Assembly: GCA_045224215.1 (NCBI GenBank)
Contig: JBGVAE010000093.1
Span: 113 to 64,112 of the forward strand
Reading direction: 5' to 3'
DNA length: 64,000 bases
Source of the DNA: Candidatus Cryptobacteroides sp.
Lineage (GTDB): Bacteria; Bacteroidota; Bacteroidia; Bacteroidales; UBA932
Shown here: positions 15,308 to 32,930 of the stretch, piece by piece
Layout of the letters: the number at the start of each line of letters is the position of its first letter
Position numbering within the stretch: position 1 is the stretch's first letter
The notes under the pieces: generated by a model
The model's database searches: none
Told to the model about the DNA's origin: nothing
Seen by the model: the letters and a program-made list of their open reading frames with translations, nothing else
Made by a program: the position numbers and the translations under genes

Positions 15308-18300
15308 CTACCTGTAATCCACTACAATGGCTGAGCAAGGACCGACTACAGTAGAATCGGTCACGGTCATCATTTCTCCGGTAATCACATTCTTCCCTTC
15401 TCCAAGGTCTGAAGCGATTTCCGCATAATGTGACCAAGGGACGGTCTTCTCGTCCAGGGAGTTGTTTATGAAAACGAATACCTTCCCTGTTTCATTGTAA
15501 CGGAAGAACGCATAGGTGTTGTCCCTTGTGAGGAAATGCATGGTCTTTCCGTTATGGATGACGTCGTTGTCCTTCCTCCATCGGAATAGATTGGCTGCAT
15601 AGTCGTGAAGATCGGCATCAGTCCCCTGCCTGCCTTCTTCTGAGAAGAGATTCTTAGCGTCTCCCTTCCATCCGCCCGGGAAGTCCATCCTGAGCTCGCC
15701 GTCGCTCTTGTAGTTCTTGCCGGTTGCGAACATCATCTCGTCGCCATAGAAAAGCTGCGGGATGCCACGGACGGTGGCCAGGAGAGTGTATGCAAGCTTC
15801 ATCTTGTCAGGATCCTGGTGCCATGAATCAGCCACACGGTAGTGGTCATGATTGGAGAGGAAGATCATCATCTTGGATATGTCGTGGTAGGTGGCATCGT
15901 GGGACAGGGCATTGTAGACCCTCATCATTCCATTATCCCAGCCTGCCTCATTCTCGCAGAGGGCTGCGTTGATGGCCGACTGGAGAGCGAAGTCCATGAT
16001 TGAAGGAAGGTTGGAGTCGAATCCGTCCGGATTGGCATTGCCGCCCTGCCAGTAGGCAACCTGGTCGTAGTTTACGTCCCAGCATTCCCCTACTATGTTG
16101 AAGTCAGGGTATTCGTTCAGCACGGCTGCGCACCACTTGCTCATCGGTACCTTCTCGTTGTATGGATAGGTGTCCACTCGTAGACCGTCAAGGCCGGAAT
16201 ACTCGGCCCACCAGATGGCCCACTGCTGGAAATACTTGAGCAAGAATTCGTTGTCAAGGTTCATATCGGGCATCGAAGGGACGAACCAGCCGCTTTCCTG
16301 GAGGTTCAGGTCGTACTTCGAGGCATTCGGGTCCATGAGGGTGGAGAACTGGAAGTTGGAGCCTGTATATTCAGGGAACTGGTGGATCCAGTCATTGAAA
16401 GGAAGGTCCTCCATCCACCAGTGGGCGGTGCCGCAATGGTTGGTCACGATGTCCATAATAACCTTCAGGCCCTTCTCATGTGCCTTCTTCACATATTCCT
16501 TGAAAAGGGAGTTGCTGCCGAAGCGAGGATCGATCTTGTAATAGTCGCCGCAGGCGTAGCCATGATAGGACTCGTGTTCCTGGTCATCAAGGAGGAGCGG
16601 GGTGCACCAGATCGCAGTGGCACCGAGGTCGGCGATGTAGTCGAGATGGTCGATGATTCCCTGGAGGTCACCTCCATGGCGGCCGAAAGGTTCGTTCCTG
16701 GCAGCCTTTTCCTGGGTGTCAAGCGTATTGTCGTTGCCTGGGTCTGCATTGGCGAAACGGTCGGGACAGATGAGATAGATGAAGTCGGAGGTTGTAAAAC
16801 TCTGCCTTGAAGCCGAGCCTTCTTCCCTGGCCGAAATCTTGTAAGGCCACCTGAAGGATTCCGTTCCATTAGTGAACACAAGGTCGTAAATCCCTGGCTT
16901 GACGGAGTTTCCAATGGTAACATCGACAAAAAGATAGTTAGGGCTTTCGGCCTTCTGGACCTTGGCAACCTTAAGGCCGGCTCCTTCAATCGCTACATCA
17001 TATTCCGAGATGTTTTCGCCATGGATAAGGAGCTGAAGGTCTGTCTTCATTCCGGTCCACCAGCAAGGCGGCTCAACCTGGGAGATCCTGGATTCAGGAA
17101 CGGTGATGCTCCAGTTCCAAGGGGATTTAAGGCCGACGCAGACCTTCACGGTGTCGCCTTCGAGGAATCTGTTGAAGGTGAAGACGCTGTCATTGGCAGC
17201 AAGGATCTCTATCGCCTCGTTGTCGCTTCTCAGGGCCTTGTGGGAATGCTTCAGGGAGGCAAGATAGGAATAGAAGTCCGTGGTCGCATTGTGATGCCAG
17301 TCCGGCATAGGATCTTTCTCGAAGAACTCGAAGCGATGGTCCAGGCCGACTTCCTGTCCGGTGTAGATGAGCGGCTGGGAGCCAGGGAGGGTCCAGCAGA
17401 GTACGCTCATGGCCTGCCAGGCATCGCCCATCCTTTCATACTCGGTGCCGTTCCAGGAATTCTCGTCGTGGTTGGAGGTGAACATGAGGCGGTGTGCGTT
17501 GCCATATTCCTTTGCATTCCAGGAGAGATAACTTGCGAGGCTGTCCCCGGTAGCCTTCCCCTGGGCAAGGTCGTTCAGAAGATGATGGAGCTTCCAGGCG
17601 TAGGTGCAGTCGAAGCCGGCTTCATGGAGGAAGGTTTCTTCTCCTTCAGCAAGGAAGAAGAGCTGCCTTGGATAATCCTTGCGGAACGCGCTGAAGGCAT
17701 CGGCCCAGAAGTCCTGCGGGACCTGGAAGGCCACGTCGCAGCGGAATCCGTCGATGCCGCGGTCCAGCCAAAAACGCATGCTGGAGACCATCGCGGCACG
17801 CATGTCTTGATTGGAATAATTCAATTTTGCAATATCTGTCCAGTCGTACTCCACCACTGTCTTTCCGGTGATGGAATCGCGGACATACCAGCTTGGGTCC
17901 TTCCCGGTGACCCATGGATGGTCCGGAGAGGTGTGGTTAGCCACCCAGTCCAGGATCACCTTGAGTCCAAGACCATGGGCCGTTTCAAGGAAATGGTCAA
18001 AGTCGCTGAGCGTTCCGAATTCAGGATTCACGTCGCAATAGTCCTTGATGGCATAATAAGAACCAAGGGTTCCTTTGCGGCCTTCTTCTCCGATAGGATA
18101 GATAGGCATGAGCCAGACCACGTCCACACCGAGTTCCTTCAGTTCCGGAAGTTTCTTCTCGGCTGCGGCGAAGGTGCCTTCGGCGGTTGCCTGCCTGGTG
18201 TTGAGTTCATAGATAACGGCTTCAGCCGTCCAGTCATCACCCGCTACGGGAGATTGAGACTGATTCTGTTCCACGGCCTTCGGCTTGCAAGCGAAGACGG

Positions 18301-18337
18301 CCAGGAGGATGGCTGATAGTGCAAGTGTACGTTTCAT
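15308..18337 (-). CDS. Lipoprotein with two tandem GH13 domains (alpha-amylase-like + SusA/neopullulanase-like)
   Basis: Lipobox LAVFAC. Domain 1 has GFRCDVA / LAEGE / SNHDE. Domain 2 starts VEPPCWWTGM (cyclomaltodextrinase N domain) and has GLRVDTY / VGECW / SNHDH. Confidence 0.88.
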   Translation of the reverse strand: MKRTLALSAILLAVFACKPKAVEQNQSQSPVAGDDWTAEAVIYELNTRQATAEGTFAAAEKKLPELKELGVDVVWLMPIYPIGEEGRKGTLGSYYAIKDYCDVNPEFGTLSDFDHFLETAHGLGLKVILDWVANHTSPDHPWVTGKDPSWYVRDSITGKTVVEYDWTDIAKLNYSNQDMRAAMVSSMRFWLDRGIDGFRCDVAFQVPQDFWADAFSAFRKDYPRQLFFLAEGEETFLHEAGFDCTYAWKLHHLLNDLAQGKATGDSLASYLSWNAKEYGNAHRLMFTSNHDENSWNGTEYERMGDAWQAMSVLCWTLPGSQPLIYTGQEVGLDHRFEFFEKDPMPDWHHNATTDFYSYLASLKHSHKALRSDNEAIEILAANDSVFTFNRFLEGDTVKVCVGLKSPWNWSITVPESRISQVEPPCWWTGMKTDLQLLIHGENISEYDVAIEGAGLKVAKVQKAESPNYLFVDVTIGNSVKPGIYDLVFTNGTESFRWPYKISAREEGSASRQSFTTSDFIYLICPDRFANADPGNDNTLDTQEKAARNEPFGRHGGDLQGIIDHLDYIADLGATAIWCTPLLLDDQEHESYHGYACGDYYKIDPRFGSNSLFKEYVKKAHEKGLKVIMDIVTNHCGTAHWWMEDLPFNDWIHQFPEYTGSNFQFSTLMDPNASKYDLNLQESGWFVPSMPDMNLDNEFLLKYFQQWAIWWAEYSGLDGLRVDTYPYNEKVPMSKWCAAVLNEYPDFNIVGECWDVNYDQVAYWQGGNANPDGFDSNLPSIMDFALQSAINAALCENEAGWDNGMMRVYNALSHDATYHDISKMMIFLSNHDHYRVADSWHQDPDKMKLAYTLLATVRGIPQLFYGDEMMFATGKNYKSDGELRMDFPGGWKGDAKNLFSEEGRQGTDADLHDYAANLFRWRKDNDVIHNGKTMHFLTRDNTYAFFRYNETGKVFVFINNSLDEKTVPWSHYAEIASDLGEGKNVITGEMMTVTDSTVVGPCSAIVVDYR

Positions 18338-19752
18338 TTGCAATATTGTTTTATACTATTGATTTTCGCAGTGAAGAAATTGTTGCCGCCCATTTCCAGC
18401 AGGCGGTACTCTCCGTGGCTGCTCCATGACGCCGGCCTGTCGGATAAGGACATATCTTCACCCGTATCGTTCGGCACGAAAAGCCGGATCATGTTCTGAA
18501 GATTGCGGATCCGGTCTGCACTGGCGGAGGGATTCAGGTAAGTGTTGCTTTCAGAGGCAAGCTCCAGCAGGTAATCCTTGTATTTCCGTCTCCAGTCTTC
18601 CACCTGGAGGATTTTATTGATCAGGGGGTTCATCTTCGAATCCCCCCAGTTCAGAGGGTCATGACGGCCGGCATCGCTCTGGACTCCGCACCAGGAGGTG
18701 GTGCCCAGGGTGTTGTCATAGTCATATGGGATGAAGTAGAACTTGTAGCTCTGAGGCTCGGTGGAGTTGAAATAGATGTAGAAATTGTTGCAGTTGTTCC
18801 AGTAGTCGTCCCACATTCCCACTGCAACGTTGACAGCGTATGTCCTGAGGAGGAGATCCACGTCGCAATGGGTTGAGAACCAGGACCTGAATTCCTGGCC
18901 CTGGAGCCTCAAGGTCTTGTTTATGAAGTCCTTGAGCTGGGCCTGCGCATTCTCGAAATCCTCGACGTTCGTCTTCAGTTCATAGGTATATTCCTTTCCG
19001 TTGTCCAGGTCCGGTCCCATGTTGGCCGAAACGGTATTGAACCTGGCGCCCCAGCGGCATCGCCAGAGATATCCGCCGTCGAAGCCGAACATATCCTCGG
19101 AGTCACGCACTTTCAGGTAGTCGTCAGCCACGGGCTCTATCATGTCGTATATTCCGAGATAATATTCCTTGGAATCCCCTTGCACTTTTATGAACAAGCG
19201 GGCATATGCAGTGTGGGACGCCGTCCAGACTCCGAAGCGGCGGAAGAGGTCGTAGCAGAAATTTTCCCTTACATATGCCGGGTCGTCCTTGTACCACTTG
19301 AAGGATATCCTTTCAGCCCCGTGGAGCTTATGCTCGGCGTCCTTATGCCACTTGTGGAAGTTGATGTCATAATGGCAATGGCGCCATTTCGGGTTGGTGG
19401 CCGAATGAAGTTGGCCGCTCTCGCCTTCCGGACGCCTTCTGGACGTGTTTCCCTTGAGCCTCAGGCCCGCTTCCTTGATGACGGTGGTGTCCTTGAGCTT
19501 GATGTAGGTAACGTCGCACTTGATGTGTTCCTTCGTTCCTGAATCCTTGTCGTAGGCCTTCAGGAGAGTGTTCCACTGCCCGAGAGAGACTTGGATGTGT
19601 ACTTCCGGAATCGTACGTCCGTCATAGACGTAGTTGACTCCGTGGTTGTCGATCGGCTCGTCGGTGACCAGGATATCATCCCCGCCCGCGTTGCATCCGA
19701 AGAAGCAACCGAGGGCGAGGATCAGGTAAACCGGGAACCGCCGCGGTCTCAT
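18334..19752 (-). CDS. CotH kinase family lipoprotein
   Basis: Lipobox CFFGC; LRLKGNTSR, ENFCYDLFRRFGV, GIYDMIEPV, WDDYWNNCNNFYIY, IPYDYDNTLG match CotH-family blocks. Confidence 0.8.
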   Translation of the reverse strand: MRPRRFPVYLILALGCFFGCNAGGDDILVTDEPIDNHGVNYVYDGRTIPEVHIQVSLGQWNTLLKAYDKDSGTKEHIKCDVTYIKLKDTTVIKEAGLRLKGNTSRRRPEGESGQLHSATNPKWRHCHYDINFHKWHKDAEHKLHGAERISFKWYKDDPAYVRENFCYDLFRRFGVWTASHTAYARLFIKVQGDSKEYYLGIYDMIEPVADDYLKVRDSEDMFGFDGGYLWRCRWGARFNTVSANMGPDLDNGKEYTYELKTNVEDFENAQAQLKDFINKTLRLQGQEFRSWFSTHCDVDLLLRTYAVNVAVGMWDDYWNNCNNFYIYFNSTEPQSYKFYFIPYDYDNTLGTTSWCGVQSDAGRHDPLNWGDSKMNPLINKILQVEDWRRKYKDYLLELASESNTYLNPSASADRIRNLQNMIRLFVPNDTGEDMSLSDRPASWSSHGEYRLLEMGGNNFFTAKINSIKQYCK

Positions 19753-21998
19753 TGCAGGAATACCACGGATGAATTCGCTTCAAGGATAAGCTGGCCGCCC
19801 TTGAGGGCTGCCGAACCAAGGATAGCGATCGGCTTGGACATGTCTCCGGAAACGGAGAGAGTCTTGGCCGAAGAAGCCACATTATGGATTACCAGGACTT
19901 TCTGTCCGTCGGATGAGGTCATGTACCAGGAAAGGATGGTAGAGCCTGAGATATTCGCTGCGCTCATCTTTCCGCTTGCAAGGGCCGGATAGGTGTTACG
20001 TACCTGGGAGAAGGTCTTGTAGACATTCATCAGGGAGTTGGCATCGGCGGACTGCGCTTCCACCGAGATGCTTGCAGTAAGCATGCTGTTGTCCACCTTG
20101 CCTCCGAGCCTGCCGGAAGCCACAGTGCCGGTCTTTGTCCATTTCATTGGGGTTCGGACATATTCATCACCACCGTCCTTCACTCCCCAGTAGCCGAGCT
20201 CCTCGCCCTGGTAGACGAAAGGCTTGCCTTCCGCCGTGAGAAGGATGGCTGCAGCCTGCTTTTCCTTCGCATCGGACCTACCCAGGTCGCTTGCAGCACG
20301 GTTCTCGTCATGGTTTGTAAGCTTGATGGCCGGAACGGCGTCCGAACGGTTGCTCAGGTAGCTGGAACGCCAGCTGATCAGGTTGTTCACGAAGGAGCCC
20401 GCGGACCTGTTGTTCAGTACGTCCTTGAGTCCCCACCAGAAACTGAATTCGAAGACTGAAGGAAGGCCTTTGTAATAGCTGAAGGTCTTGGAAGCTTCGC
20501 TGAATACCTCACCTACCATGTATATGTCTCCGCTATTGCCGGCGGCCTTGTAGGTGGCGTTGCAATGCTGGTACCACTTATCCAGGAAAGTCGGGTTCTC
20601 GTCGCTGGTCTCGCTCCAGTAGATGTGCTTAACTGCATCCAGGCGCAAACCCTTCACTCCCATGTTGATCCATTTATCGGCCGAGGCCGCCAGGTCCTTG
20701 AATGCCGGAGATGTCTCGCTCGTCGAGGCAGCTCCATAATTGAAATCGGCGAACCAGTCGGTCCAGAGGTGCGAATGGTACATCAGTGAGTTCATCCCCG
20801 GAAGGAGGATGTCGGCAGCATCGGTATTGGAAAGGGTAAGTTCCTGCCCCCAGACCAACTGATGGTTGCTGCTCGGTGCCCCGTACTTGTAGGAATCCCA
20901 CTGGGTCTGGCTGGTCCTGACGAGGACACCCCAGGAACTGGAAATATCCAGGGAAAGGGTGCAGGTCGAACCGCCTGTGGTATAGAACTGGGCCATCTTG
21001 CCGTCTCCGTAATAGAGCCAGATCCCTGAAGTCTGGGAGCCAGTATTGGCGATCTCCTCCACCTGCTCGATCTTCAGGGTCTTAGGCTTCCCCGCCCCGT
21101 CGAGAGTCAGGGTGAACTTGACTTTCATCGAGGTTGCAGAACCGCTGACGCATGAGAACCACTGGCCGGAATCATAGCCGTTCTTCGGGAACATTGCAAG
21201 CCTGCCTGCGGAGATGTCGGCCGCCGGGTCGCTCGAGAATATGAAATAGTCGCGGTAAGGGCTGTCCTCGGAAGCCTTGGCGCTCAGGAACCAAGGGTGG
21301 TCCTTGCCGGCATGGTTGAGTACATAGTCCAGATAGATGTCTATCCCCTTTGCCTTGGCTTTAGCGAGCAAGTTCTTGAAATCCTCTTCGGTACCATATT
21401 CAGAATTGACTGAATAATAATCTTTTACATCATAGCCATGATAGGACATCGCAGGATGGATAGGGCTGAGCCACAAGGCGCTCACGCCCATCTCATCGAG
21501 ATAGTCCAGCTTGGAGGCTATTCCGTTGAAATCCCCTATCCCGTCACCGTTGCTGTCGGCGAAGGAATATACCAGGAGCTGATAAGCGGTTCCGGCCCTC
21601 TTCTTGCCATCGAAGGCTGCCGGCTCGGCCACCAGGTAGGTCACCTTGTTCCCGCTCTGGGTCACCTTTACCGTAGCATCCTGGGCTCCTTTGACGGATA
21701 TGCTGCCCTCACGGTCATCTCCGTCATTCGCGGAAACGGTAACTGAAAGAGAGGCATTGCCGCTGCCGGAAGTCTTGTCGAGGTGGATCCAGTCCGAGGA
21801 TGCGGAAGCAGTCCAGGCAGCAGTGGACTTGACGCTGAACAGCCTGGTGGAAGCATCTTCGGCCGTAAAGGCCAGCTCCGTAGGTGAAACGGAGAGAGTG
21901 TCCGGCTCCTTCTGGTTTTTATCACCACAGGAGACAACCAGCATGACTGCTGAAAATGCTGCAAGCAGCAGGAAATGGAATTTCTTTGTCATAGCCAT
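19749..21998 (-). CDS. susG: SusG-like outer-membrane alpha-amylase (BACON domain + GH13 with CBM58-like insert)
   Basis: Lipobox LVVSC; BACON-like N domain; YQLLVYSFADSNGDGIGD, GLRLDAVKHIY, VGEVF, TNHDE; internal LYYG..WGVLVRTS..KYGA insert resembling SusG CBM58. Start 21998 or 21992. Confidence 0.85.
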   Translation of the reverse strand: MAMTKKFHFLLLAAFSAVMLVVSCGDKNQKEPDTLSVSPTELAFTAEDASTRLFSVKSTAAWTASASSDWIHLDKTSGSGNASLSVTVSANDGDDREGSISVKGAQDATVKVTQSGNKVTYLVAEPAAFDGKKRAGTAYQLLVYSFADSNGDGIGDFNGIASKLDYLDEMGVSALWLSPIHPAMSYHGYDVKDYYSVNSEYGTEEDFKNLLAKAKAKGIDIYLDYVLNHAGKDHPWFLSAKASEDSPYRDYFIFSSDPAADISAGRLAMFPKNGYDSGQWFSCVSGSATSMKVKFTLTLDGAGKPKTLKIEQVEEIANTGSQTSGIWLYYGDGKMAQFYTTGGSTCTLSLDISSSWGVLVRTSQTQWDSYKYGAPSSNHQLVWGQELTLSNTDAADILLPGMNSLMYHSHLWTDWFADFNYGAASTSETSPAFKDLAASADKWINMGVKGLRLDAVKHIYWSETSDENPTFLDKWYQHCNATYKAAGNSGDIYMVGEVFSEASKTFSYYKGLPSVFEFSFWWGLKDVLNNRSAGSFVNNLISWRSSYLSNRSDAVPAIKLTNHDENRAASDLGRSDAKEKQAAAILLTAEGKPFVYQGEELGYWGVKDGGDEYVRTPMKWTKTGTVASGRLGGKVDNSMLTASISVEAQSADANSLMNVYKTFSQVRNTYPALASGKMSAANISGSTILSWYMTSSDGQKVLVIHNVASSAKTLSVSGDMSKPIAILGSAALKGGQLILEANSSVVFLQ

Positions 21999-22058
21999 GT
22001 TTCGATAATTAGCAAGCCGGAGTCCGGTCAGGGACTCCGGCCCGAAAAAAGTCACCGA

Positions 22059-24650
22059 TTACTCGATGGTGATGGTCTCAGCCACTGAATCGTAGATGAT
22101 GCTGAAGGTCTCCTTGTCGGAAACATTGATGTTGTCTCCTCCAGGGACAGCAGTGAAAGCAGCACCGGAAGTGTAGGTACCACCCCTGTTGACATCCCAG
22201 CCGGATCCCTGACGGACCTTCCAGCCGCCGGAGATTGTCTGGTTGTATGCCACCCACTTGCCTGCACCGTCATACATCATGAAGACGTCTCCGCCCCAGC
22301 TGTTGAAGTCACCGATGACGCCCCAGAACTGATTGCTGAGGGTGACGGTTTCAGCAGCAGGATCATAGACGACCATATAGGTACCGTCTGCAGGAGCCTT
22401 GAAGTTGTTTCCGCCGTTGGTGACTGCAAAGGCCTCGTTGACAGCAGCGCAGTCGCCGCCGCGGTTGTTGTCCCAACCTGCATTCTCACGGACCTTGATC
22501 TCGTCGGTAGCTGTAAGGTAAACAGGTATCGAATACCACTTGCCGTCGGCACCGAGGTTCATTGGAACGTCATTGTTCCAGCTGAATCCGGCGATGCTGG
22601 CGATGGAACCTACGACACCCCACTGAAGGGTACCGATGGTCTCATTGTTGGCATTGTAAACCACCTTGAAGGTTCCGAGGAGGTTGACGTTGTCACCGCC
22701 TTGGACGGCCTTGACGAACTCACCCTGCTTGGATGGGGTCGCACCTCCGCGGTTGACGTCCCAACCCTTGTCGAAGCGGACTTTCCAGCCACCCTTCTCG
22801 ACGGTGATCATATCACTGACCCAGATGCCTGGCATGACTTCGGTCATTGCGACATCGGTGTTCCAGTCATCGTTGACTCCGATGACGCTCCAGGTCTTCT
22901 TGGCGTTGACGACGGTAATAGTCTGTGCGGACGGATCGTAAGTCACGACATAAGTCCCGTCTGAAGCGATCGCGATATTGTCACCGCCGGCAACGGCTGC
23001 GAAAGGCTGGCCGAGTTCGGCCATGGTTCCTCCTACGTTCTCAGCCCAGTCGTGGTTGTGACGGATCTTCAGGCCTCCGGCCGTGATGGCAGTCTCAGGG
23101 CTTACCCACTTGCCGTCGACAAGTTCCATGTCAACGTCACCGCCCCAACTGTTGAAGTCACCGATGAGGGACCATACGTCGCCGTTGGAAACGGTGATGG
23201 TGAGGTCGTTGGTATTCAGGACAACCTTGTAGAAGCCTGCTCCGATCTTGATGTTGTCGCCACCTGCGACGGCTGCGAACGGCTGACCGAGTTCGACCAG
23301 GGTGCCACCATAGTTCTCGTCCCAACCGGCATCCTTGCGCCACTTGAACTCAGTGTCGCCTTCAGCGGTGATGTATGCAGTCCAGACTCCGTCCTTCTCG
23401 GATGCGAGGACGTCGTTGTCCCAGTCACCATTGAGACCGATGATGTTCCAACCGGTGACAACCTCAGGCTCCGGCTCGTCACCTCCACCGATGATGGTAC
23501 TGACCTTTGCTCCTGAAGTTTCCACAACCTTGGCAGTTCCGGCATCCGGGTTCACGAAGAGGTCATAGACGCCTTCGGTTCCCACCACGATGTTAGGTCC
23601 ATCCTGGGTGACGCTGAACTCATTGTCAAGTCCACCGAATTCACCACCGAGGTTGACGGCCCAATCCAGGTCCTTGCGGAACTTGAACTCATCTGCGGCC
23701 GCAATCGAAACGCCGAGGGCTACATGGTTGCTTCCGTCGGAAATCATGGCGATGTCGCCGTCCCAGCTGATTCCATGCTTGGAAAGGGCTCCGATGACGG
23801 TCCATGCGCTGGATTCGGTGTATTCAGGATAAGGGTTGTATGCCTCGGTAACCTTTGCGGTTCCTGCGTTCGAATCGAACCAGATGTCATAGGTTCCGGC
23901 TGCGCCGACCTTGATGTTAGGTCCGTCCTGGGTGACGCTGAAATCATTGTCAAGTCCACCGAAGTCGCCACCCATGTTGACGGCCCAATCCAGGTCCTTG
24001 CGGAACTTGAATTCATCGTCTGCGGTGAGCCTGACAGCAGCAGCCACGAAGTTTCCGTTGCCGTCGGTCCACATGTTGAGGTCATTGTCCCATGAGATTC
24101 CATATTCACTGAGCGCACCGGTGATCGACCACTTTTCGTCGCTGTCCTGGGCGTTGGTGGTGTACTCTTCATAAGGGCTGCCCGCAGGGATCACCACCTC
24201 GAATCCGTTGATAGTGATGCGGCCTTCGGAATCAACGTGTCCGTTACGTCCGTTGTCACGGGCGACTTCCTGCATTGAAGCACGTACGACGAGTTCTACG
24301 TCTACAAACGAGCCTTCAGTGTACCCATATGAAAGGAGGGCTTTTGAGAGAGTCCCTACGGAAAGGGAGAGGGTGCCGTCCTTGGCCGTGGAGGAAAGGG
24401 TCTTGCTGACAGTCCTTCCGTCTACGGAGACAAGGGCGAGGGAATGGTTGACAGGCATCTGCTCATTGAAGCCCATCTTGAAGGTACCCGGGGTATAGGT
24501 TGCAGTGATGGCTTTCTCGCCGATCTCATAGCTTCCAAGTACCGGGGCCGTGGCCTGGGAAGGATCGAAACTCTTCAGGTCCTCCTGGACGCAGGACACT
24601 GCGCTGAAAAGCAGCAGTCCGGCAGATATGATTGAAAATAATTTCTTCAT
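22059..24650 (-). CDS. SusE/SusF-like starch-binding lipoprotein with seven CBM-like repeats
   Basis: Lipobox SAVSC; seven ~95-aa units W.(I/V)IG...W..D..M....(FK/WK).R....W..N.GG...G.N; position directly after susD. Confidence 0.85.
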   Translation of the reverse strand: MKKLFSIISAGLLLFSAVSCVQEDLKSFDPSQATAPVLGSYEIGEKAITATYTPGTFKMGFNEQMPVNHSLALVSVDGRTVSKTLSSTAKDGTLSLSVGTLSKALLSYGYTEGSFVDVELVVRASMQEVARDNGRNGHVDSEGRITINGFEVVIPAGSPYEEYTTNAQDSDEKWSITGALSEYGISWDNDLNMWTDGNGNFVAAAVRLTADDEFKFRKDLDWAVNMGGDFGGLDNDFSVTQDGPNIKVGAAGTYDIWFDSNAGTAKVTEAYNPYPEYTESSAWTVIGALSKHGISWDGDIAMISDGSNHVALGVSIAAADEFKFRKDLDWAVNLGGEFGGLDNEFSVTQDGPNIVVGTEGVYDLFVNPDAGTAKVVETSGAKVSTIIGGGDEPEPEVVTGWNIIGLNGDWDNDVLASEKDGVWTAYITAEGDTEFKWRKDAGWDENYGGTLVELGQPFAAVAGGDNIKIGAGFYKVVLNTNDLTITVSNGDVWSLIGDFNSWGGDVDMELVDGKWVSPETAITAGGLKIRHNHDWAENVGGTMAELGQPFAAVAGGDNIAIASDGTYVVTYDPSAQTITVVNAKKTWSVIGVNDDWNTDVAMTEVMPGIWVSDMITVEKGGWKVRFDKGWDVNRGGATPSKQGEFVKAVQGGDNVNLLGTFKVVYNANNETIGTLQWGVVGSIASIAGFSWNNDVPMNLGADGKWYSIPVYLTATDEIKVRENAGWDNNRGGDCAAVNEAFAVTNGGNNFKAPADGTYMVVYDPAAETVTLSNQFWGVIGDFNSWGGDVFMMYDGAGKWVAYNQTISGGWKVRQGSGWDVNRGGTYTSGAAFTAVPGGDNINVSDKETFSIIYDSVAETITIE
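23589..24017. repeat. Intragenic direct repeat of ~105 bp (23589-23693 and 23913-24017, 324 bp apart)
   Basis: GATGTTAGGTCC...CTTGCGGAACTTGAA.TCATC is nearly identical in both copies; encodes DEFKFRKDLDWAVN..GGLDN.FSVTQDGPNI. Confidence 0.85.
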
Positions 24651-24662
24651 TGCTGATAACTG

Positions 24663-26243
24663 TTAATAACCCGGATTCTGTTCAAGGTTGGAGTTGGCAA
24701 GACGGTCGCTGTCAGGAATCGGGAAGAGGGTCCTGTAGGAATCCACATCCCTTCCATCCTTGACTTCTCCCTTCCACTGCCAGGTGTAACCGGAAGTGAA
24801 CTTCCCGAAGCGGATAAGGTCGCTGCGGCGCCAGCACTCCTGATAGAGTTCACGTCCACGCTCGTCGAGGATCTCGTCGAGGCTGAGAGCCGACACTGCA
24901 GGCAAGCCGGCACGTGCACGGACCTGGTTGAAAGCAGCGAGTCCTTCGATCGAAGCACCGCGTGCCTGGCACTCGGCTGCCATCAGGAGGACGTCGGCGT
25001 AACGCATCATAGGGAAGTCGGTGTTGACGAAACCAGGGTTGTTCCAAGTGTCTTTCTCCTCATCATAGACCCTGTTAGGGATCTCGCCGTCGCTCTGGAC
25101 GTTGCGGAACTTCATGAAGGCGTAACCGTTGCTGAACTCTCCGATATCGTCGATGTCCTTGGTCTGGGTAGCGGTGTAGAAGAGGTTGCGGGCGTCATTG
25201 GAGGCGAACTTGTCATAGAACTGAGGAGTGGTGCGCAGACCGCCCCATCCTGAGGAGATACCCATCTGTGCGGGATCCATCGAACCGCCTGTAGAGGCGA
25301 AGATGATGTAGTTGGTCACACCGTAGCTCTGGGTATAGATTCCGTCCTGCTCCACGGCGAAGATGATCTCGTCGGTGCACTTGTCATTGTCTGCGAGGAA
25401 GAGCTCCTGATAGGCGTTGAAGTTGCCTGCAGACGAGGTGTGAAGGCTGTAACCTGCGCTCATGAGGTCCTTGAGGACGTTTGCGCAGTCGTTCCAGCGG
25501 GCAGTGCCGGTGTAAACCTCGGCGTTGAGATAAAGCTTGGCGAGGAGGAACTGTGCGGCACCCATGCTGACATGGCCGTAGGTGACAGCGTTCTTTCCAG
25601 GGAGGTAGCCGTCGGCAATGATGTCCTTGAGCTCGTTTTCCAGCCATTCGAAGAGGTCAGCCCTCTTGATCTGGGTAGGGACGACGCCCACCACGGAATT
25701 CTCGTCGGCGAACGGGACGTTGCCGAAGTTATCCAGGGCATGATAGTATGCGATGGCACGGAGTACCCTTGCCTCGTCGATGTAGCGGTTCTGCACGGAA
25801 GCGTCGAAGCTCAGGCCCTTCACTTCGCGGATGAACTCGTTGGCTGCAGAGACCTGCATGAAGATACGTGAATAGAACGCATAGATGAAGGTGTCGTCAG
25901 TCGTCCAGTTCATGTAATGGAAGTTCTTGATGGTCTGGTCGTTCCAACCGCAGACGCTCTCGTCGGTGGTAAGTTCGCTCAGGTGGTAGAGTCCACGGAC
26001 GTACTGTGAAGCTCCGCCGTCAAGACCGGAAATCGAAGCCGATCCATTCGGACCGTAATAACCGGATGTGGCGAATCCAAGATACACGCCGGAGATGTAG
26101 GAATCAAGGGCGGACTGGCTGGTGAGTGCCTTGTCAGCGGTGTTCGCATTAGGATCGATAGGGGTCACGTCGAGATCGCCCACGCAGGAACTCAGGGCAG
26201 CGGCGGCTGCGAGGATTCCGAGAATATATATTACCTTTTTCAT
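24663..26243 (-). CDS. susD: SusD/RagB family nutrient-binding lipoprotein
   Basis: Lipobox ALSSC; EARVLRAIAYY..LDNFGNVP, MRYADVLLMAAE, ILDERGRELYQECWRRSDLIRFG, FPIP..NLEQNPGY. Confidence 0.93.
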   Translation of the reverse strand: MKKVIYILGILAAAAALSSCVGDLDVTPIDPNANTADKALTSQSALDSYISGVYLGFATSGYYGPNGSASISGLDGGASQYVRGLYHLSELTTDESVCGWNDQTIKNFHYMNWTTDDTFIYAFYSRIFMQVSAANEFIREVKGLSFDASVQNRYIDEARVLRAIAYYHALDNFGNVPFADENSVVGVVPTQIKRADLFEWLENELKDIIADGYLPGKNAVTYGHVSMGAAQFLLAKLYLNAEVYTGTARWNDCANVLKDLMSAGYSLHTSSAGNFNAYQELFLADNDKCTDEIIFAVEQDGIYTQSYGVTNYIIFASTGGSMDPAQMGISSGWGGLRTTPQFYDKFASNDARNLFYTATQTKDIDDIGEFSNGYAFMKFRNVQSDGEIPNRVYDEEKDTWNNPGFVNTDFPMMRYADVLLMAAECQARGASIEGLAAFNQVRARAGLPAVSALSLDEILDERGRELYQECWRRSDLIRFGKFTSGYTWQWKGEVKDGRDVDSYRTLFPIPDSDRLANSNLEQNPGY

Positions 26244-26256
26244 ATTCAATCCCATA

Positions 26257-29223
26257 TTAGAAGTTGAGTTTCACACCTGCCACAAAGGTACGCGGACGTG
26301 GATAGACGGTGCCGTCGATTCCTCCGTAGACCTCAGGGTCGATGCCTGAGTACTTGGTGAGAGTGCAGATGTTCTGGACCGTACCGAAGATGTTAAGCGA
26401 TGCATAACGGTTGGTGACGATCTGGAAAAGCTTAGGGAAGGTATAGCCCAGGGTGAAGTTGTCGAGCTTCAGGAATGAGCCATCCTCGAGATAGTAGTCA
26501 GACAGGTACTGGGCCTGGGTGAACATCGTACGCGGAGCCGATGAAACACGGTTGCTGACGAACTGGTTGGTCCAGAGGTCGGCGAGCATCTCGGTGTCGG
26601 AAGCCACGTTGTTGTAAACCCAGTTGCCGATGGAGGCGTGTCCCGAAAGGGCCGCAGTCCAGTTCTTGTAGTTGAACTTGGTGTTGAAACCGAAGGTGTA
26701 GTCAGCATCTGCATGATGGGACATGTACTTGTCGTCTGCAGTGATCTGGCCGTCGTTGTTGCGGTCCACATAGACGCCGTTCACAGGAGCTCCGTCCTCG
26801 TCGTAAACCTGCTGGTAGAGGTAGAAGGTACGCATCGGATAACCGACCTGGATCAGCTGGACGTTGTTTCCGGTACCTCCGGAGATTCCACCGGTCTCGA
26901 TGCCGGCTGCGTCCTCGTCGGAAGCGGTCAGCTTGGTGACCTTGTTCTGGTTGTAAGCCATGTTGACTCCGAAGGTCCAGCTCATGTCCTTCTTCTCGAT
27001 GAGGATGGAGTTGAGGTCGAGCTCGATACCCTTGTTGGTCATCGTACCGATGTTGGTGTTCAGGTAGTTGGTGAGGTTGGAAAGGCCAGGGACTGGGATG
27101 TAGTTGAGAATGTCGCGGGTGTCTCTCTTGTAAACGTCAGCGCTGAGGGTCAGGCGGTCACCGAACCAACCGAAGTCCATACCTGCATTGTAGGTAGTTG
27201 TGGTCTCCCACTTCAGGTCGGCGCTGTAACCCAGGGCCACGATAGGAGCCGAGTAGTCACTGCCGTTGACGAAGTAGTAAGAACCAGGAGTGTTGATGGT
27301 GAGGAACTGTGCGAAGGTGTCGTAGTAGCCTCCGACTTCCTGCTGACCGGTCTCTCCCCAGCTCAGACGGAGCTTCAAGGTCGAGAACAGGTCTGAGTTC
27401 TTCATGAACGGCTCATTCTTGATGTTCCAAGCGAAGGCCACTGAAGGGAAGATACCCCACTTGTGGTTCTGGAAGCGGGAGGTACCGTCGGCACGGAGGG
27501 TGGCGGTGATAAGGTAGCGGTCTGCGAAGCTGTAGTTCGCGCGGCCGAAGAAGGAGACGAGATAGAGCTCACCCTTGCCCTCGGTGTTGCTCAGCTCGAG
27601 ATTGTCGGAAATCCTGTAGCTGTAGTTGTGGCTGTTGCTCCAGAAGTGCTGCCAGGAATATCCTGCCATCAGGTCGATGTTGTGCAGGTCGGCGAAAGTC
27701 TTGTTGAAATCACCGTAGAATTCCAGGGTAGTATTGCGGCGGGTGTAGTCGTAGTCGGTGTGGGAACCGCCGCCTGACTGTGTCGTGTTGTGGTAAGAAG
27801 CCTCGGAACCCTTCGCGAGTTCGGAGACGCCGTCTGACTTAGCCCAGTCGATACCCAGATTGAGGTTGAACCTCAGGGCCTCGAAACCGTGGACCTTGTA
27901 GTCGAACTGGGTGTTACCGATGAAACGGTAGGAGTCCGCATAGTCGGTCTTCGCGTCAAGGAGGGCCACAGGGTTCATGGTAGCCATGGAGTTGATGTTG
28001 CCCGAAGCGTCGAACCAAGTGGTATAGCCATTCAGTCCGGCAGAGTCATAGACAGGCTTGGTAGGGTCGTAGTGATTGGCGGCTCCGATGGCATCCTGGT
28101 TTGCATAGAAGTTCTTCGCATAGACACCCTTTCCGTTAAGGTTGACGGTGAGGTGGTTGTCGAAGAAGGTCGGAGAAAGGTTGAGGGAAACGGTTCCCCT
28201 GTTCATCTTGGAACCCTTGAGGGTACCGTTCTGGCTCGTCAGGCCTCCGGAAACACGGTAAGGCAGGAAGCCGGCGCGTCCGTTGATGCTGACGTTTCCG
28301 TCATAGGTCTGGGCGGTGTGGTAGATCTGCTTCTGCCAGTCAGTGTTGTCGTTTCCGAGGGCAGCCTCTGCAGCTGAGTTGACTCCGTAGAAATCACGGA
28401 TCAGCGCACGGATGCCGTCAGCGTCGAGTACATCGTTGTACTTGGCGATGGTATTGGCAGATGCGGTGAAATCAACAGCGACCTGAGGGATCTTGGAAGC
28501 GGTCTTGGAGCCCTTCTTGGTGGTGATCACGATGACACCGTTGGACGCGCGGGAACCGTAGATGGCGGTTGCGGAAGCATCCTTGAGGACAGTGAAGCTC
28601 TCGATGTCTTCAGGGTTGATGGAAGAAAGAGGGTCGGACATACCGGAGATTCCGTCGTTGGAGACAGGCAGACCGTCGATGACGATCAGAGGGTCGTTGG
28701 AGGCGTTGATGGATGAACCACCACGGATCCTGATGGTAGCGCCTGAACCAGGCATACCGCTACCGGCAGTGACGACGACACCTGCGCTCTTGCCACGGAG
28801 GAGGTCCGCAGGAGAAGTGATGACACCCTTGTTGATCTCATCGGCCTTGACGGTAGCGATGGATCCGGTCATGTCACTCTTCTTCACGGTACCGTAACCG
28901 ATGACCACGACATCATCGAGGAACTCGGAGTCTTCGACGATGGTAAGGCTTGCAGGGACTGCAGAAGCCTTGAATGACTGTGTCGTGTAGCCGATGCAAC
29001 TGATGACAACAATCGCATCAGGACTGGAAACGTTGAGCATGTAGTCTCCGTCGAGTCCGGTCGAAGTACCGTTCGTAGTACCCTGTTCCATGACAGTGGC
29101 ACCGATCACGGGACCGGATGCGTCGACTACAACTCCTTTCACCAGATACCCGCTCTGAGCGGATACGGTAGTGCCGGCCAAGCCAAACAGCAAGGCCGCC
29201 ACAGCAGCTATAATCCTTTTCAT
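26257..29223 (-). CDS. susC: SusC/RagA family TonB-dependent transporter
   Basis: VVVIGYG, IRIRGGSS..NDPLIVIDG, INPEDIESFTVLKDASATAIYGSRASNGVIVITTKKG, LKWETTTTYNAG, C-terminal YPRPRTFVAGVKLNF. Start 29223 (ORF track 29253). Confidence 0.95.
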   Translation of the reverse strand: MKRIIAAVAALLFGLAGTTVSAQSGYLVKGVVVDASGPVIGATVMEQGTTNGTSTGLDGDYMLNVSSPDAIVVISCIGYTTQSFKASAVPASLTIVEDSEFLDDVVVIGYGTVKKSDMTGSIATVKADEINKGVITSPADLLRGKSAGVVVTAGSGMPGSGATIRIRGGSSINASNDPLIVIDGLPVSNDGISGMSDPLSSINPEDIESFTVLKDASATAIYGSRASNGVIVITTKKGSKTASKIPQVAVDFTASANTIAKYNDVLDADGIRALIRDFYGVNSAAEAALGNDNTDWQKQIYHTAQTYDGNVSINGRAGFLPYRVSGGLTSQNGTLKGSKMNRGTVSLNLSPTFFDNHLTVNLNGKGVYAKNFYANQDAIGAANHYDPTKPVYDSAGLNGYTTWFDASGNINSMATMNPVALLDAKTDYADSYRFIGNTQFDYKVHGFEALRFNLNLGIDWAKSDGVSELAKGSEASYHNTTQSGGGSHTDYDYTRRNTTLEFYGDFNKTFADLHNIDLMAGYSWQHFWSNSHNYSYRISDNLELSNTEGKGELYLVSFFGRANYSFADRYLITATLRADGTSRFQNHKWGIFPSVAFAWNIKNEPFMKNSDLFSTLKLRLSWGETGQQEVGGYYDTFAQFLTINTPGSYYFVNGSDYSAPIVALGYSADLKWETTTTYNAGMDFGWFGDRLTLSADVYKRDTRDILNYIPVPGLSNLTNYLNTNIGTMTNKGIELDLNSILIEKKDMSWTFGVNMAYNQNKVTKLTASDEDAAGIETGGISGGTGNNVQLIQVGYPMRTFYLYQQVYDEDGAPVNGVYVDRNNDGQITADDKYMSHHADADYTFGFNTKFNYKNWTAALSGHASIGNWVYNNVASDTEMLADLWTNQFVSNRVSSAPRTMFTQAQYLSDYYLEDGSFLKLDNFTLGYTFPKLFQIVTNRYASLNIFGTVQNICTLTKYSGIDPEVYGGIDGTVYPRPRTFVAGVKLNF

Positions 29224-29273
29224 TTGGAAATTTTGAATTGTTGGAATTTGCATTCTATATCTGTGTGTAATTA

Positions 29274-30617
29274 TTAAGCAGTTTTCTTCTCGGTCACGAA
29301 ATGGACGCTGAGGGCACCCAGGACAAGCAGGACACCTGCGATGATGAGCATGTTGGCCTGAATTCCGCCGACAGCCTTGAGGACAAGTCCTCCAAGGGCT
29401 GCAGCCACGATCTGTGGCAGGCAGATGGTGCAGTTGAACAGACCGAGATAGCTGCCCATGTGCTCGCCGTGGAGGGAATTGGTCAGCAGGGTGAACGGAA
29501 GCGCGAGCATTGCCGCCCAGGCCGCACCGATCATGAAGTAGGAAAGGAAGAGTACGTACTGGTTGTGTACGAAGGCAACGGATATGAAGCCCACGGCTCC
29601 GATGAGGAGACTCACTACATAGGCGAGTTTGAGGGACTTGAACTTAGGGATTACGATTGCCCAGAGGATGGAGCCCACGGCCTGCAGGGCGAAAACGACC
29701 CCTACCCAGTTGCCTGCTGCCTGATAACCGGCTGATGCTGTGTCTGTCGCATTCCAGCAGTTGGCAGCGATGGCTCCGTTGGAATATGTCCACATGTACA
29801 TGAACGCGGCCCAGCAGAAGAACTGCACGAGGCCTACCGTCCAGAAAGTCTTCGGAGCATGGAGCAGGAGTTTGAAGAGGCCCGGCTTGCCGGCCGCCTT
29901 CTCTTCTTCCTGCTGCTTCTGAAGGTCTATTCCGTGGAATTCCGCATATTCCTGAGGATTCATTTCCTTGACTTTCAGGAAAGTGTAGAGCACGCATAGG
30001 ATGAGGATGGCTGCTCCGCAGTAGAAACTCCAGATCACGGATGGAGGGATCTGACCCTTAGGGGCGGTGTTGGCTATTCCTATCCATGTGAAGAAGATCG
30101 GGAAGAGATAGCCAACGAGGCTCCCTGCGTTGCAAAGGAGCGACTGGAGGGAATATGCCTCAGCCTTCTGCTCTTCGCTCACCATGTCGCCCACCATCAT
30201 CTTGAAAGGCTGCATCGCTACGTTGATGGAGGTGTCCAGGAATATCAGTGAGAACAGCCCGAACCACATCGCGCCGTTGAGGCCCAGCATCAGCCTGTCG
30301 GAGAAATTAAGGTTCCCAGCATTTGGAAGGAATATCATCACCAGCACTGCAACGATGGCGCCGACCAGCAGATAAGGCTTCCTGCGGCCCATCTTGCACC
30401 AGGTCCTGTCGGAATATTTTCCAATCAAAGGCTGGACGATCATTCCCATGAGAGGAGGGAGTATCCAGAAGAAACTCAGCTGGTGCGGATCGGCGCCCAG
30501 GGTCGCGAAAATCCTGCTTATGTTTGCGCTCTGGAGGGCGTATGCTATCTGCACGCCGAAGAACCCGAAACTCAGGTTCCACATATCCCAGAAAGATAAT
30601 TTACGTTTGTCCTGCAT
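29274..30617 (-). CDS. MFS sugar transporter (maltose/sucrose-type, SLC45-like)
   Basis: WNLSFGFFGVQIAYALQ, QPLIGKYSDRT..GRRKPY, DTSINVAMQPF, MGSYLGLFN..ICLPQI; first gene of the sus operon. Confidence 0.88.
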   Translation of the reverse strand: MQDKRKLSFWDMWNLSFGFFGVQIAYALQSANISRIFATLGADPHQLSFFWILPPLMGMIVQPLIGKYSDRTWCKMGRRKPYLLVGAIVAVLVMIFLPNAGNLNFSDRLMLGLNGAMWFGLFSLIFLDTSINVAMQPFKMMVGDMVSEEQKAEAYSLQSLLCNAGSLVGYLFPIFFTWIGIANTAPKGQIPPSVIWSFYCGAAILILCVLYTFLKVKEMNPQEYAEFHGIDLQKQQEEEKAAGKPGLFKLLLHAPKTFWTVGLVQFFCWAAFMYMWTYSNGAIAANCWNATDTASAGYQAAGNWVGVVFALQAVGSILWAIVIPKFKSLKLAYVVSLLIGAVGFISVAFVHNQYVLFLSYFMIGAAWAAMLALPFTLLTNSLHGEHMGSYLGLFNCTICLPQIVAAALGGLVLKAVGGIQANMLIIAGVLLVLGALSVHFVTEKKTA

Positions 30618-30652
30618 TATGAGGTTATGAGTTTTAAATGCTGTTAATCGTT

Positions 30653-30660
30653 CAAAATTA
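30653..30660 (-). promoter_or_regulatory. -7 promoter box (TAATTTTG) of the MFS-sus operon
   Basis: CAAAATTA on + reads TAATTTTG on -, 36 nt upstream of the MFS ATG. No good TTTG -33 box seen. Confidence 0.65.
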
Positions 30661-30692
30661 GCAAATCAATATTAATTAAATAACGCGCGCAC

Positions 30693-30740
30693 GACGAAAG
30701 GCACGGAAACCCGGACGAATTGCGAGGTTTTAATGACGAA
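30693..30740. promoter_or_regulatory. Three GACGAA direct repeats at 21-bp period (candidate LytTR binding array)
   Basis: GACGAA at 30693, 30714 and 30735, immediately upstream of a LytS/LytTR operon. Confidence 0.65.
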
Positions 30741-30783
30741 CTGAAAGATATTTTTCTTAACTTGCGATGATTCGGAACCTGAC

Positions 30784-32160
30784 ATGAAACAAATCCGTAC
30801 ATCCAGCATAATCCACGGATTCGCACTGCTTCACTTCGCTGCGGCCGCTCTGTGCCGCCTCTGCAACGTCGAAGACGAACTGGTGCTGACCACTCTGACC
30901 ATAATCCTCTCCGTCATCCTCTGCTTCCGGTACAGGCAGAGCATGGAATTCTCGGCCATCGTCATCATCATCGCGAACATTTTCGGATTCCTCCTGGGTA
31001 ACGGAACGGCATACATCGTGAAGCTCATAACCAGCCACCCTATCCTCTATCCGGCGATAGCCACTTTCCTGACCACTGAGATCATGGGCTGGGCCCTCGT
31101 AGGCTTCATGAACCATTATATCGGCAGAGGGGCGGACGACCGAAGTGCCGGAAACGTAGAAAAGACCTGGCTTGTAATAGCCATTGCCCTGATACTTCTT
31201 ATCCGAGTGATAATCAGGCTTTTCAAGTCCACTCTTTTCTCAGGGGGCTCAATGACAGAAGCCCTCGTGGATTTCTCGGGTAATTCCATCGCCCTGCTGT
31301 TCATGGTCTGCATCACGATATTCTTCATATCTTTCAGGAAGAATCACCCGCAAGCCTCCCCGCACATTCTGAAAAGTATCGGCGACGCCGTCCTTTTCTT
31401 CATCCTGACATCAAGCCTCTCAGCTTTGATAGTCGGTTACAGTTTCCCGTTCCACCTGGACAAAGGCCTGACGGCAAGGCACTACATGGAGCTGCTTCTG
31501 GTCGCCTTAATATGCGAAGCTTTGATATATTCTATCATATATATGATTGAATATGCCATTACGGCCAGAAGGAAGGCTGAAAATGAGAAGAGCAGGGCCG
31601 ACCTTGCCAAGTTCCAGTACCTCAACCTGAAGCAGCAGGTCAATCCGCATTTCCTATTCAATTCCCTGAACATCCTGGATGCACTTGTTCTGGATGGGAA
31701 AGACCAGGAAGCCAGCACATACATCCACAAACTCGCCGGGTTGTACCGATACATGCTGAAGAACGAGGAAGAGGCCACGGTCTCCCTCAGGGATGAGATG
31801 ACTTATGTGGATATGTACAGCGACTTGCTGAAAGTGCGCTTCCAGGAGGGTTTCGTCCTGGATTCAGCCGTCCGGGAAGAGGATATGGCGAGATATGTCA
31901 TTCCTTGTTCGATCCAGCTGCTCATCGAAAACGCCACCAAGCATAATGCTGTGTCCCCTGAAAGGCCACTGTACGTCAGGATAACCTCCGACGGGGAGAG
32001 CGTGACCGTGACAAACAACCTCATCCCGAGAGTCACGAAATCCCAGTCCAGCGGGCTGGGGCTCAACTATATACGAAAGCAATACATGGAACGGTCCGGT
32101 AAGGGAATAGAGATAGAAAAGACCGAAGGGGCCTATACAGTTAAACTTCCGCTGCTATGA
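30784..32160 (+). CDS. LytS-type sensor histidine kinase, polytopic membrane sensor
   Basis: LKQQVNPHFLFNSLN H-box, SLRDEM, IQLLIENATKHN, SSGLGLNYI; about 9 hydrophobic segments in the N-terminal region. Confidence 0.92.
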   Translation: MKQIRTSSIIHGFALLHFAAAALCRLCNVEDELVLTTLTIILSVILCFRYRQSMEFSAIVIIIANIFGFLLGNGTAYIVKLITSHPILYPAIATFLTTEIMGWALVGFMNHYIGRGADDRSAGNVEKTWLVIAIALILLIRVIIRLFKSTLFSGGSMTEALVDFSGNSIALLFMVCITIFFISFRKNHPQASPHILKSIGDAVLFFILTSSLSALIVGYSFPFHLDKGLTARHYMELLLVALICEALIYSIIYMIEYAITARRKAENEKSRADLAKFQYLNLKQQVNPHFLFNSLNILDALVLDGKDQEASTYIHKLAGLYRYMLKNEEEATVSLRDEMTYVDMYSDLLKVRFQEGFVLDSAVREEDMARYVIPCSIQLLIENATKHNAVSPERPLYVRITSDGESVTVTNNLIPRVTKSQSSGLGLNYIRKQYMERSGKGIEIEKTEGAYTVKLPLL

Positions 32161-32930
32161 GAGTATTGATCATCGAAGACGAGACCATGGCCCGCAGGAG
32201 CCTGGAAAAGATCCTGGAGAACAACTTTCCCGACATCGCGATAGTCGGGGAATGTGGTTCCGTCAAGGATTCAGTGGAATGGTTGAGAGAGAATCCAGGA
32301 AAAGCTGATGTGATTTTCATGGATGTGGAACTCTCGGATGGAGAGTGTTTCGAGATATTCCGGAAAGTGGAGGTCAAGTCGCATGTGGTGATGACAACTG
32401 CCTATGACAATTATGCCGTCAAGGCCTTCGAGGCAGGGAGCGTGGATTATCTGCTGAAACCGATCGACATAGGTCCGCTCAAGAGAGCCATGGAACGTTG
32501 CAGGACTGTTCCGGCAAGCCTGGATGTGGAAAGGATCCTTGGGGCATTGGCTTCGGAGCAGCATAAGAACGGGTACAAAGAGCGTTTCCTGGTGCATTTC
32601 AACGACAGGATCGTCCCTATAAAAGCGGATGAGATAGCCTTTTTCTATTCGGAGGACAAGAACAACCACGTCGTCACCCACGAAGGGTCGGTGTACATCG
32701 TGGACAATACGATGGACAGCCTGATGACCGGACTCGATCCGGAAAGGTTCTTCAAGATATCGAGAAGCTGCATATTCTCGAAAGACGCTATCGACAGCGT
32801 GACGAAACTTATGGGAGGACGTCTCAGGATAACGCCGAAGACAATAATGACGTTGGACAGAGGATCGGCTCCTGACCTCACCGTAAGCCGGTCAAGGTCA
32901 GAGGAATTCCTGGAGTGGCTGGAAGGATAA
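32157..32930 (+). CDS. LytTR family response regulator
   Basis: IIEDE, DVIFMDVEL, TTAYDNYA, DYLLKP receiver motifs; FFKISRSCI and VSRSR LytTR motifs; ATGA overlap with the kinase. Confidence 0.93.
   Translation: MRVLIIEDETMARRSLEKILENNFPDIAIVGECGSVKDSVEWLRENPGKADVIFMDVELSDGECFEIFRKVEVKSHVVMTTAYDNYAVKAFEAGSVDYLLKPIDIGPLKRAMERCRTVPASLDVERILGALASEQHKNGYKERFLVHFNDRIVPIKADEIAFFYSEDKNNHVVTHEGSVYIVDNTMDSLMTGLDPERFFKISRSCIFSKDAIDSVTKLMGGRLRITPKTIMTLDRGSAPDLTVSRSRSEEFLEWLEG

Follow-up and report, generated by a model that had tools for sequence, protein, structure and literature searches.

A conserved array of three direct repeats at the predicted promoter of a starch utilization locus beside a LytS/LytTR gene pair in Candidatus Cryptobacteroides

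We analyzed a 64-kb stretch of DNA (the whole of which is hereafter called the window) from Candidatus Cryptobacteroides sp. (assembly GCA_045224215.1, 2.41 Mb; contig JBGVAE010000093.1), in which a starch polysaccharide utilization locus (PUL) and a gene pair coding for a LytS-type histidine kinase and a LytTR response regulator are divergently arranged. The two units are separated by a gap of 166 bp (30618-30783), the PUL operon, headed by a major facilitator superfamily (MFS) permease gene, lying on the minus strand and the kinase/regulator operon on the plus strand. This gap contains three direct repeats with an exact period of 21 bp, and this array is a real conserved element. We consider it likely that the phosphorylated LytTR regulator binds these boxes and activates the starch PUL.

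The three-box array and its conservation

The hexamer GACGAA starts at positions 30693, 30714 and 30735 of the plus strand, all within the gap, exactly as an earlier note made from the letters of this DNA had reported. Every box extends to a 9-mer with a final G, and the spacers are 12 nt long. Box 1 (GACGAAAGG, 30693-30701) is the closest of the three to the PUL promoter and spans about -45 to -53 relative to the inferred transcription start, box 2 (GACGAATTG, 30714-30722) lies 21 bp from box 1, and box 3 (GACGAACTG, 30735-30743) is distal to the PUL promoter and adjoins the kinase promoter; the box centres fall near -49, -70 and -90. Sites of LytTR regulators have been described as repeats of 9-11 nt with 11-13-nt spacers (PMC4847170) or as imperfect direct repeats of 8-13 bp about 12 bp apart (PMC4064291), and the window array, with its three 9-mers and 12-nt spacers, shows this organization.

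Any hexamer occurring three times with equal spacing was obtained in 0.4% of first-order Markov shuffles of the gap. The pattern GAYGAA-N15-GAYGAA-N15-GAYGAA, searched on both strands with at most one mismatch in total, occurs a single time in the 2.41-Mb genome, at the window site, and no further regulon site was found in the genome even when two boxes and the -7 box alone were searched.

Related loci were examined in 20 same-genus cases and in 80 cases from a species-representative genome collection; they are named Candidatus Cryptobacteroides, 'Alistipes sp. CAG:514', or belong to many metagenome-assembled genomes of rumen and hindgut Bacteroidales. The 72 usable gaps were reduced to 56 non-redundant clusters at <85% identity. 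The earlier note had asked whether synteny and the 21-bp array persist in relatives, and both do: the divergent SusC-MFS / kinase-regulator layout was found in 71 of the 75 evaluable loci of the set of 80 (one is colinear), and GAYGAA three times at 21/21 bp was exact in 40 of the 56 clusters and present in 52 when one mismatch was allowed in one box. Among the lags between pairs of exact boxes (n = 147), 90 were of 21 bp, 45 of 42 bp, three of 22 bp and three of 43 bp, the rest being six scattered singletons.

Boxes 1 and 2 share the consensus GAYGAAYKG, with G at +8 in 98% of gaps for box 1 and in 100% for box 2; for box 3, the hexamer alone is conserved. The spacers diverge between gaps, apart from an A-rich spacer 1 and a T-run in spacer 2. 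In an unanchored MAFFT alignment of 16 gaps (mean identity 57%), the invariant columns were those of the PUL -7 box, of the three boxes, and of a kinase-side T-run followed by a TAAnTTGC block.

The spacers are also asymmetric (30702-30734 and consensus), spacer 1 being A-rich (RAAnA) and spacer 2 carrying a conserved TTTT run, which suggests that an intrinsic bend may exist across the array. Also, box 1 and the PUL -7 box flank an alternating ACGCGCG tract (30684-30691), which is situated roughly at -36 to -43 and recurs in about one third of the orthologous gaps of both clades (L051, L053, L083, L087, L089, L094, L101, L123). This tract may represent a second site or play a structural part.

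Four genomes of the same genus (G020, G022, G023, G033), two of them at least 94% complete, have neither the regulator nor the MFS gene, and in a fifth (G012) the MFS gene has a different neighbourhood and is not accompanied by SusC, kinase, regulator or boxes. Also, a few same-genus kinase/regulator pairs (L080:4726-5136 and L103:4694-5104) are without MFS-SusC and have degenerate GACGG/ACGAC remnants or no boxes upstream; such pairs may be decayed or re-targeted systems.

Promoter geometry and occurrence in other families

The PUL promoter and its start were predicted from sequence. A perfect Bacteroidetes -7 box is present on the minus strand at 30653-30660 (CAAAATTA on the plus strand, TAATTTTG on the minus strand); it starts 32 nt from box 1 and places the transcription start near 30646. 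This spacing is fixed, as 50 of 52 orthologous gaps show a -7-like box at 31-33 nt from box 1. The window promoter has no -33 element, and TTTG was detected in the -33 zone of only 3 of the 50 orthologous PUL promoters, so that the lack of a good -33 box, remarked upon in the earlier note for this site, is general; the distance that it gave between the nearest repeat and the start (about 46-51 nt) agrees with the position of box 1. The array is thus situated just upstream of the predicted core promoter, as LytTR operators are, and the combination of a good -7 box with no -33 element corresponds to the anatomy of an activator-dependent promoter.

On the other side of the array, a T-run and TAACTTGC (30745-30765, plus strand) form a putative -7 region of the kinase/regulator operon, which is an invariant block in the clade of the window. 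In the window, 23 nt separate the start of box 3 from that of TAACTTGC, and in this clade the -33 zone of the kinase promoter is covered by box 3. From clade to clade, the distance between box 3 and the best kinase-side -7-like box takes values of 11-14, 23, 32, 39-43, 53 or 63 nt.

Rearranged loci separate the two promoters. In one locus (L084), GH77 is followed by the kinase, the regulator, the operator, MFS and SusC; the MFS gene is preceded by three boxes (one degenerate) that keep their orientation, 31 nt from its -7 box, and no boxes are found before the kinase. In two other families, f2 (genome G037) and f134 (genome G290), the order is kinase, regulator, two boxes, N32, -7 box, pullulanase, MFS, SusC, SusD. 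At least 11 loci from two genera of f2 present two boxes, 32 nt and a -7 box after the regulator and before the pullulanase or SusC gene; in both families the kinase promoter is devoid of boxes and the PUL promoter retains them. Because the boxes keep a constant distance from the -7 box and follow the PUL promoter in rearrangements, and because the -33 element is missing, we assign the array to the PUL promoter, and since it is part of that promoter, activation of the PUL would be its main role. Boxes 1 and 2 appear as the core pair, also found in f2 and f134, while the two-box operators of these families are without box 3, which seems to be an extra box seen in Candidatus Cryptobacteroides.

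A composite pattern made of the -7 box, N32 and two 9-mers at 21 bp was then searched across the order, in 401 genomes, and gave 13 matches vs 2 for a reversed control. Eight of the 13 adjoin a PF06580 kinase and a LytTR regulator: the window, one same-genus genome, the starch loci of G037 and G290, and four unrelated operons of four further families (L180:8004-12606, L181:3713-8105, L182:8030-10667, L188:2398-5068). Two of these four operons consist of the operator, a CarboxypepD_reg-like protein of 790 aa, the kinase and the LytTR regulator, and the other two of the operator, a LiaF-like membrane protein, the kinase and the LytTR regulator. The link between motif and LytTR regulator is therefore independent of the starch PUL, because the operator also heads unrelated LytS/LytTR operons. 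The five matches without a nearby LytTR gene are somewhat above the chance level of the reversed control (two).

A stricter three-box pattern requiring YKG in box 1 was also tried on the 401 genomes and rejected, as it misses the window site itself, whose box 1 ends with AGG; beyond the genus, its only matches were tandem or low-complexity repeats, plus two sites without neighbouring LytTR or PUL genes.

The kinase/regulator pair, the starch operon and known systems

The kinase (458 aa, 30784-32160, plus strand) is of LytS/YehU type, with a PF06580 domain (8.9e-23) that includes the conserved histidine, followed by an ATPase domain. The H-box NPHFLFNSLN, the N-box LIENATKHN and the GLGL motif are present; the match to HATPase_c is weak (E = 0.1). 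Hydropathy predicts approximately seven transmembrane helices up to residue 255, with no sizeable periplasmic loop. Neither PF07694 (5TMR-LYT) nor GAF matched the kinase, even at E up to 5, and the regulator scores 92.7 bits vs a BtsR cut-off of 246, so that the pair does not look orthologous to BtsS or YpdA systems.

The idea that the membrane domain of the kinase is not conserved between families was rejected, as its first 100-105 residues or so have a counterpart in f2, 29-35% identical, in the form of a separate open reading frame (ORF) of 122 aa. This ORF, which encodes a membrane module carrying the TEIxGW motif, and the beginning of a shorter kinase ORF overlap in different frames (L166:14404-15856 in G037), and the frame offsets are repeated in L205, L206 and L208-L211. 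The arrangement corresponds either to a split/fused sensor or to a conserved frameshift.

The response regulator (257 aa, 32157-32930, plus strand), whose start overlaps the kinase stop by 4 nt, is composed of a receiver (REC) domain (PF00072, 2.7e-16) and a LytTR domain (PF04397, 2.8e-13; 50 bits vs a cut-off of 22.6 bits), and residues D8, D56, T80 and K101 are invariant in 20 orthologues. Its AlphaFold2 model (mean predicted local distance difference test, pLDDT, of 83.7) shows strands through residues 143-227, in agreement with the all-beta LytTR fold. Foldseek matched the model to full-length ComE (4cbv, 8e-11) and to the LytTR domain 3d6w (target-normalised TM-score of 0.87). When the sequence of the regulator was compared with the PDB, receiver domains alone were matched, and the LytTR domain was seen by the fold search. 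Intact H- and N-boxes, phospho-acceptor residues and a ComE-like predicted fold suggest that kinase and regulator are functional.

The PUL operon contains seven genes on the minus strand (15308-30617), with intergenic gaps of at most 20 nt. The first gene codes for an MFS sugar permease of GPH/sucrose-like type (29274-30617; PF07690, PF13347, with a weak TIGR01301 match), whose orthologues adjoin the operator and show 62-97% identity at most loci and 39-41% at a few. It is followed by genes for the TonB-dependent SusC (26257-29253) and for SusD (SusD_RagB, 24663-26255), both recognized by profile matches, and by a protein of 863 aa which occupies the SusE/F position (22059-24650). Then come a SusG-like GH13 enzyme with CBM58 (19749-22055; profile matches to SusG_CBM58 and SusG_C) and, based on Pfam and NCBIfam domain content, a CotH-family protein (18334-19752) and a double GH13 of 1011 aa (15308-18343), which associates an amylase half and a cyclomaltodextrinase-type half with cyclomaltodextrinase N and C domains. 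Adjoining SusC/SusD and alpha-glucan-active GH13 enzymes in one operon define a Sus-like starch PUL.

Besides the LytTR pair, the sole regulator found in the window was a MarR protein (12749-13234). As already noticed from the letters alone, no SusR, LacI, hybrid two-component or extracytoplasmic function (ECF) regulator was detected among the window ORFs scanned (some small ORFs lay outside the scan), and the locus does not have the organization of a SusR-regulated sus locus. On another contig (G000:C100:5944-7542, L197), we detected a 532-aa protein, SusR-like in size, with a C-terminal LuxR-type helix-turn-helix (HTH) as its only recognized domain. Its gene is upstream of phosphate-selective-porin-family and LTD-domain genes, with an ECF sigma/FecR/TonB-receptor set nearby.

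Close parallels are found in Escherichia coli, where YpdA/YpdB and BtsS/BtsR (YehU/YehT) also associate a PF06580 LytS-class kinase with a REC-LytTR regulator. YpdB binds two direct repeats GGCATTTCAT at the promoter of yhjX (PMC4847170), whose product is an MFS protein (PMC6545925). As in YpdB-type systems, the regulon appears very small here, with a single local target that includes a transporter. However, three boxes of a different sequence are present instead of two, the kinase is without the 5TMR-LYT and GAF domains of YpdA/BtsS, the regulator is far below the BtsR and LytR equivalog cut-offs, and the target is, unlike those of YpdB and BtsR, a seven-gene operon for outer-membrane glycan import and amylases with a Bacteroidales promoter of -7/-33 type.

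In Firmicutes, operators of AgrA/ComE/PlnC type lie just upstream of the core promoter and consist of imperfect direct repeats of 9 bp separated by 12 bp (PMC4064291, PMC4847170). They share the 21-bp period of the window array, and full-length ComE is the best fold match of the regulator model; those systems, in contrast, respond to peptide pheromones and control quorum-sensing or bacteriocin genes, whereas the present array has a third box and stands at a carbohydrate locus. For AlgR of Pseudomonas aeruginosa, the core 9-mer is CCGTTCGTC (PMC4064291). Its reverse complement is exactly GACGAACGG, which in the genus ranks among the most frequent forms taken by boxes 1 and 2. The consensus GAYGAAYKG includes this reverse complement; compared with it, the window boxes show one difference (box 3) or two (boxes 1 and 2). 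Compared with the Bacteroides thetaiotaomicron sus locus, the PUL has the same SusC/SusD, SusG-like GH13 with CBM58, further GH13 and an adjoining regulator gene, but a LytS/LytTR pair replaces SusR and an MFS permease heads the operon. In a published reconstruction of polysaccharide regulation in B. thetaiotaomicron, the word LytTR is absent (PMC3878776).

Proposed regulation, alternatives and significance

We propose that the polytopic LytS-type kinase would phosphorylate the regulator upon a signal related to alpha-glucans, and that regulator molecules would then bind the 9-mers head to tail, with boxes 1 and 2 as core pair and an additional upstream site in box 3. From their positions near -49, -70 and -90, the bound boxes would recruit RNA polymerase to the PUL promoter devoid of a -33 element, and the seven-gene MFS-susC-susD-amylase operon would be switched on. 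The kinase/regulator operon, which has its own promoter beside box 3, may be modulated as a side effect. The earlier note had suggested that the pair activates the PUL and/or itself: in silico, the sequence data argue for activation of the PUL, and autoregulation would be at most secondary.

Several points weigh against this proposal. The kinase has no periplasmic domain, which makes its sensing of starch products less easy to explain; 3 of the 75 evaluable loci have the kinase/regulator pair without an upstream MFS gene; three LacI-family genes and the gene for the 532-aa LuxR-HTH protein are found elsewhere in the genome and represent possible extra inputs; and box 3 possibly acts, perhaps negatively, on the kinase promoter, as judged from its position.

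One alternative is that the regulator does bind the boxes, but that its chief output is its own operon, or that it represses the PUL until the signal arrives. Box 3 does adjoin the kinase promoter and overlap its -33 zone in the clade of the window; in the larger clade, the kinase -7 box is 39-43 nt from the start of box 3, which roughly mirrors the PUL side, and the two-box geometry heads operons containing kinase and regulator in four other families. Nevertheless, we regard this alternative as improbable: kinase-side spacing varies widely by clade whereas PUL-side spacing is fixed, the boxes of L084, f2 and f134 are kept at the PUL promoter with none at the kinase promoter, and in the larger clade a TTG belonging to the kinase promoter is found some 20 nt upstream of the -7 box of that promoter. 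Also, boxes placed upstream of a core promoter without a -33 element would suit an activator rather than an operator that blocks polymerase. It is still less probable, indeed very improbable, that the PUL promoter does include the boxes but that a distal factor (a regulator of the LacI family, a SusR-like one or a global carbon regulator) binds them, with a LytS/LytTR pair that is a syntenic neighbour directed to another target. The distal LacI-family and LuxR-HTH genes would provide candidates, but none adjoins alpha-glucan genes, the neighbours of the LacI-family genes being SDR and PTS-GAT permease genes, an H+-pyrophosphatase gene and another SusCD pair, respectively. LacI and LuxR-type regulators typically bind palindromes, whereas the present repeats are arranged head to tail at 21 bp; unrelated operons from four additional families show this motif and geometry next to LytTR regulators; gain and loss of the boxes coincide with those of the regulator and the PUL; and an array unique in the genome argues against a global regulator. 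As for a chance arrangement or a neutral remnant without function, one could invoke that the hexamer, with its three copies in a single gap, came to attention by visual inspection of 64 kb, and that a few similar triples exist in coding regions of the window. The exact period conserved across 52 of 56 diverged gaps, the constant distance from the promoter, uniqueness in the genome and recurrence in other families reduce the probability of this explanation to almost nothing.

With PUL activation by the LytTR regulator retained as the preferred explanation, a broader proposal can be formulated, which we put forward tentatively and hold to be rather unlikely in its full extent. GAYGAAnnG-N12-GAYGAAnnG placed 32 nt from a -7 box might be an activation module common to a clade of Bacteroidales LytS/LytTR systems, of which starch systems would be one branch, and the kinase might sense sugar uptake through the MFS permease or within the membrane, not a periplasmic ligand. 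In SusR and hybrid two-component systems, by contrast, it is a periplasmic ligand that is sensed.

PULs are the main route of glycan feeding in gut and rumen Bacteroidota, and the regulators established as switching them on are SusR, hybrid two-component systems, ECF sigma/anti-sigma pairs and a few one-component regulators. To our knowledge, the LytS/LytTR systems of Bacteroidales, and of Bacteroidota at large, form a large and very abundant signalling family that is almost unstudied. In a full-text literature search, we found no paper that ties a LytTR regulator to a Bacteroidota PUL promoter, in line with the statement of the earlier note that such control was not known to be described for starch PULs; one preprint presents Bacteroides LytS/LytTR pairs as putative and reports that their promoters showed no induction.

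Thus, an operator sequence and a promoter geometry are now defined for a putative LytS/LytTR-controlled starch PUL. The operator is conserved across Candidatus Cryptobacteroides, with genomes from rumen and hindgut metagenomes, and in at least two other Bacteroidales families. This apparently constitutes the first testable DNA-site model for the Bacteroidota LytS/LytTR family, and it could be used for predicting, from sequence, the starch responsiveness of uncultured rumen taxa, or as a compact inducible promoter/regulator module for Bacteroides engineering.

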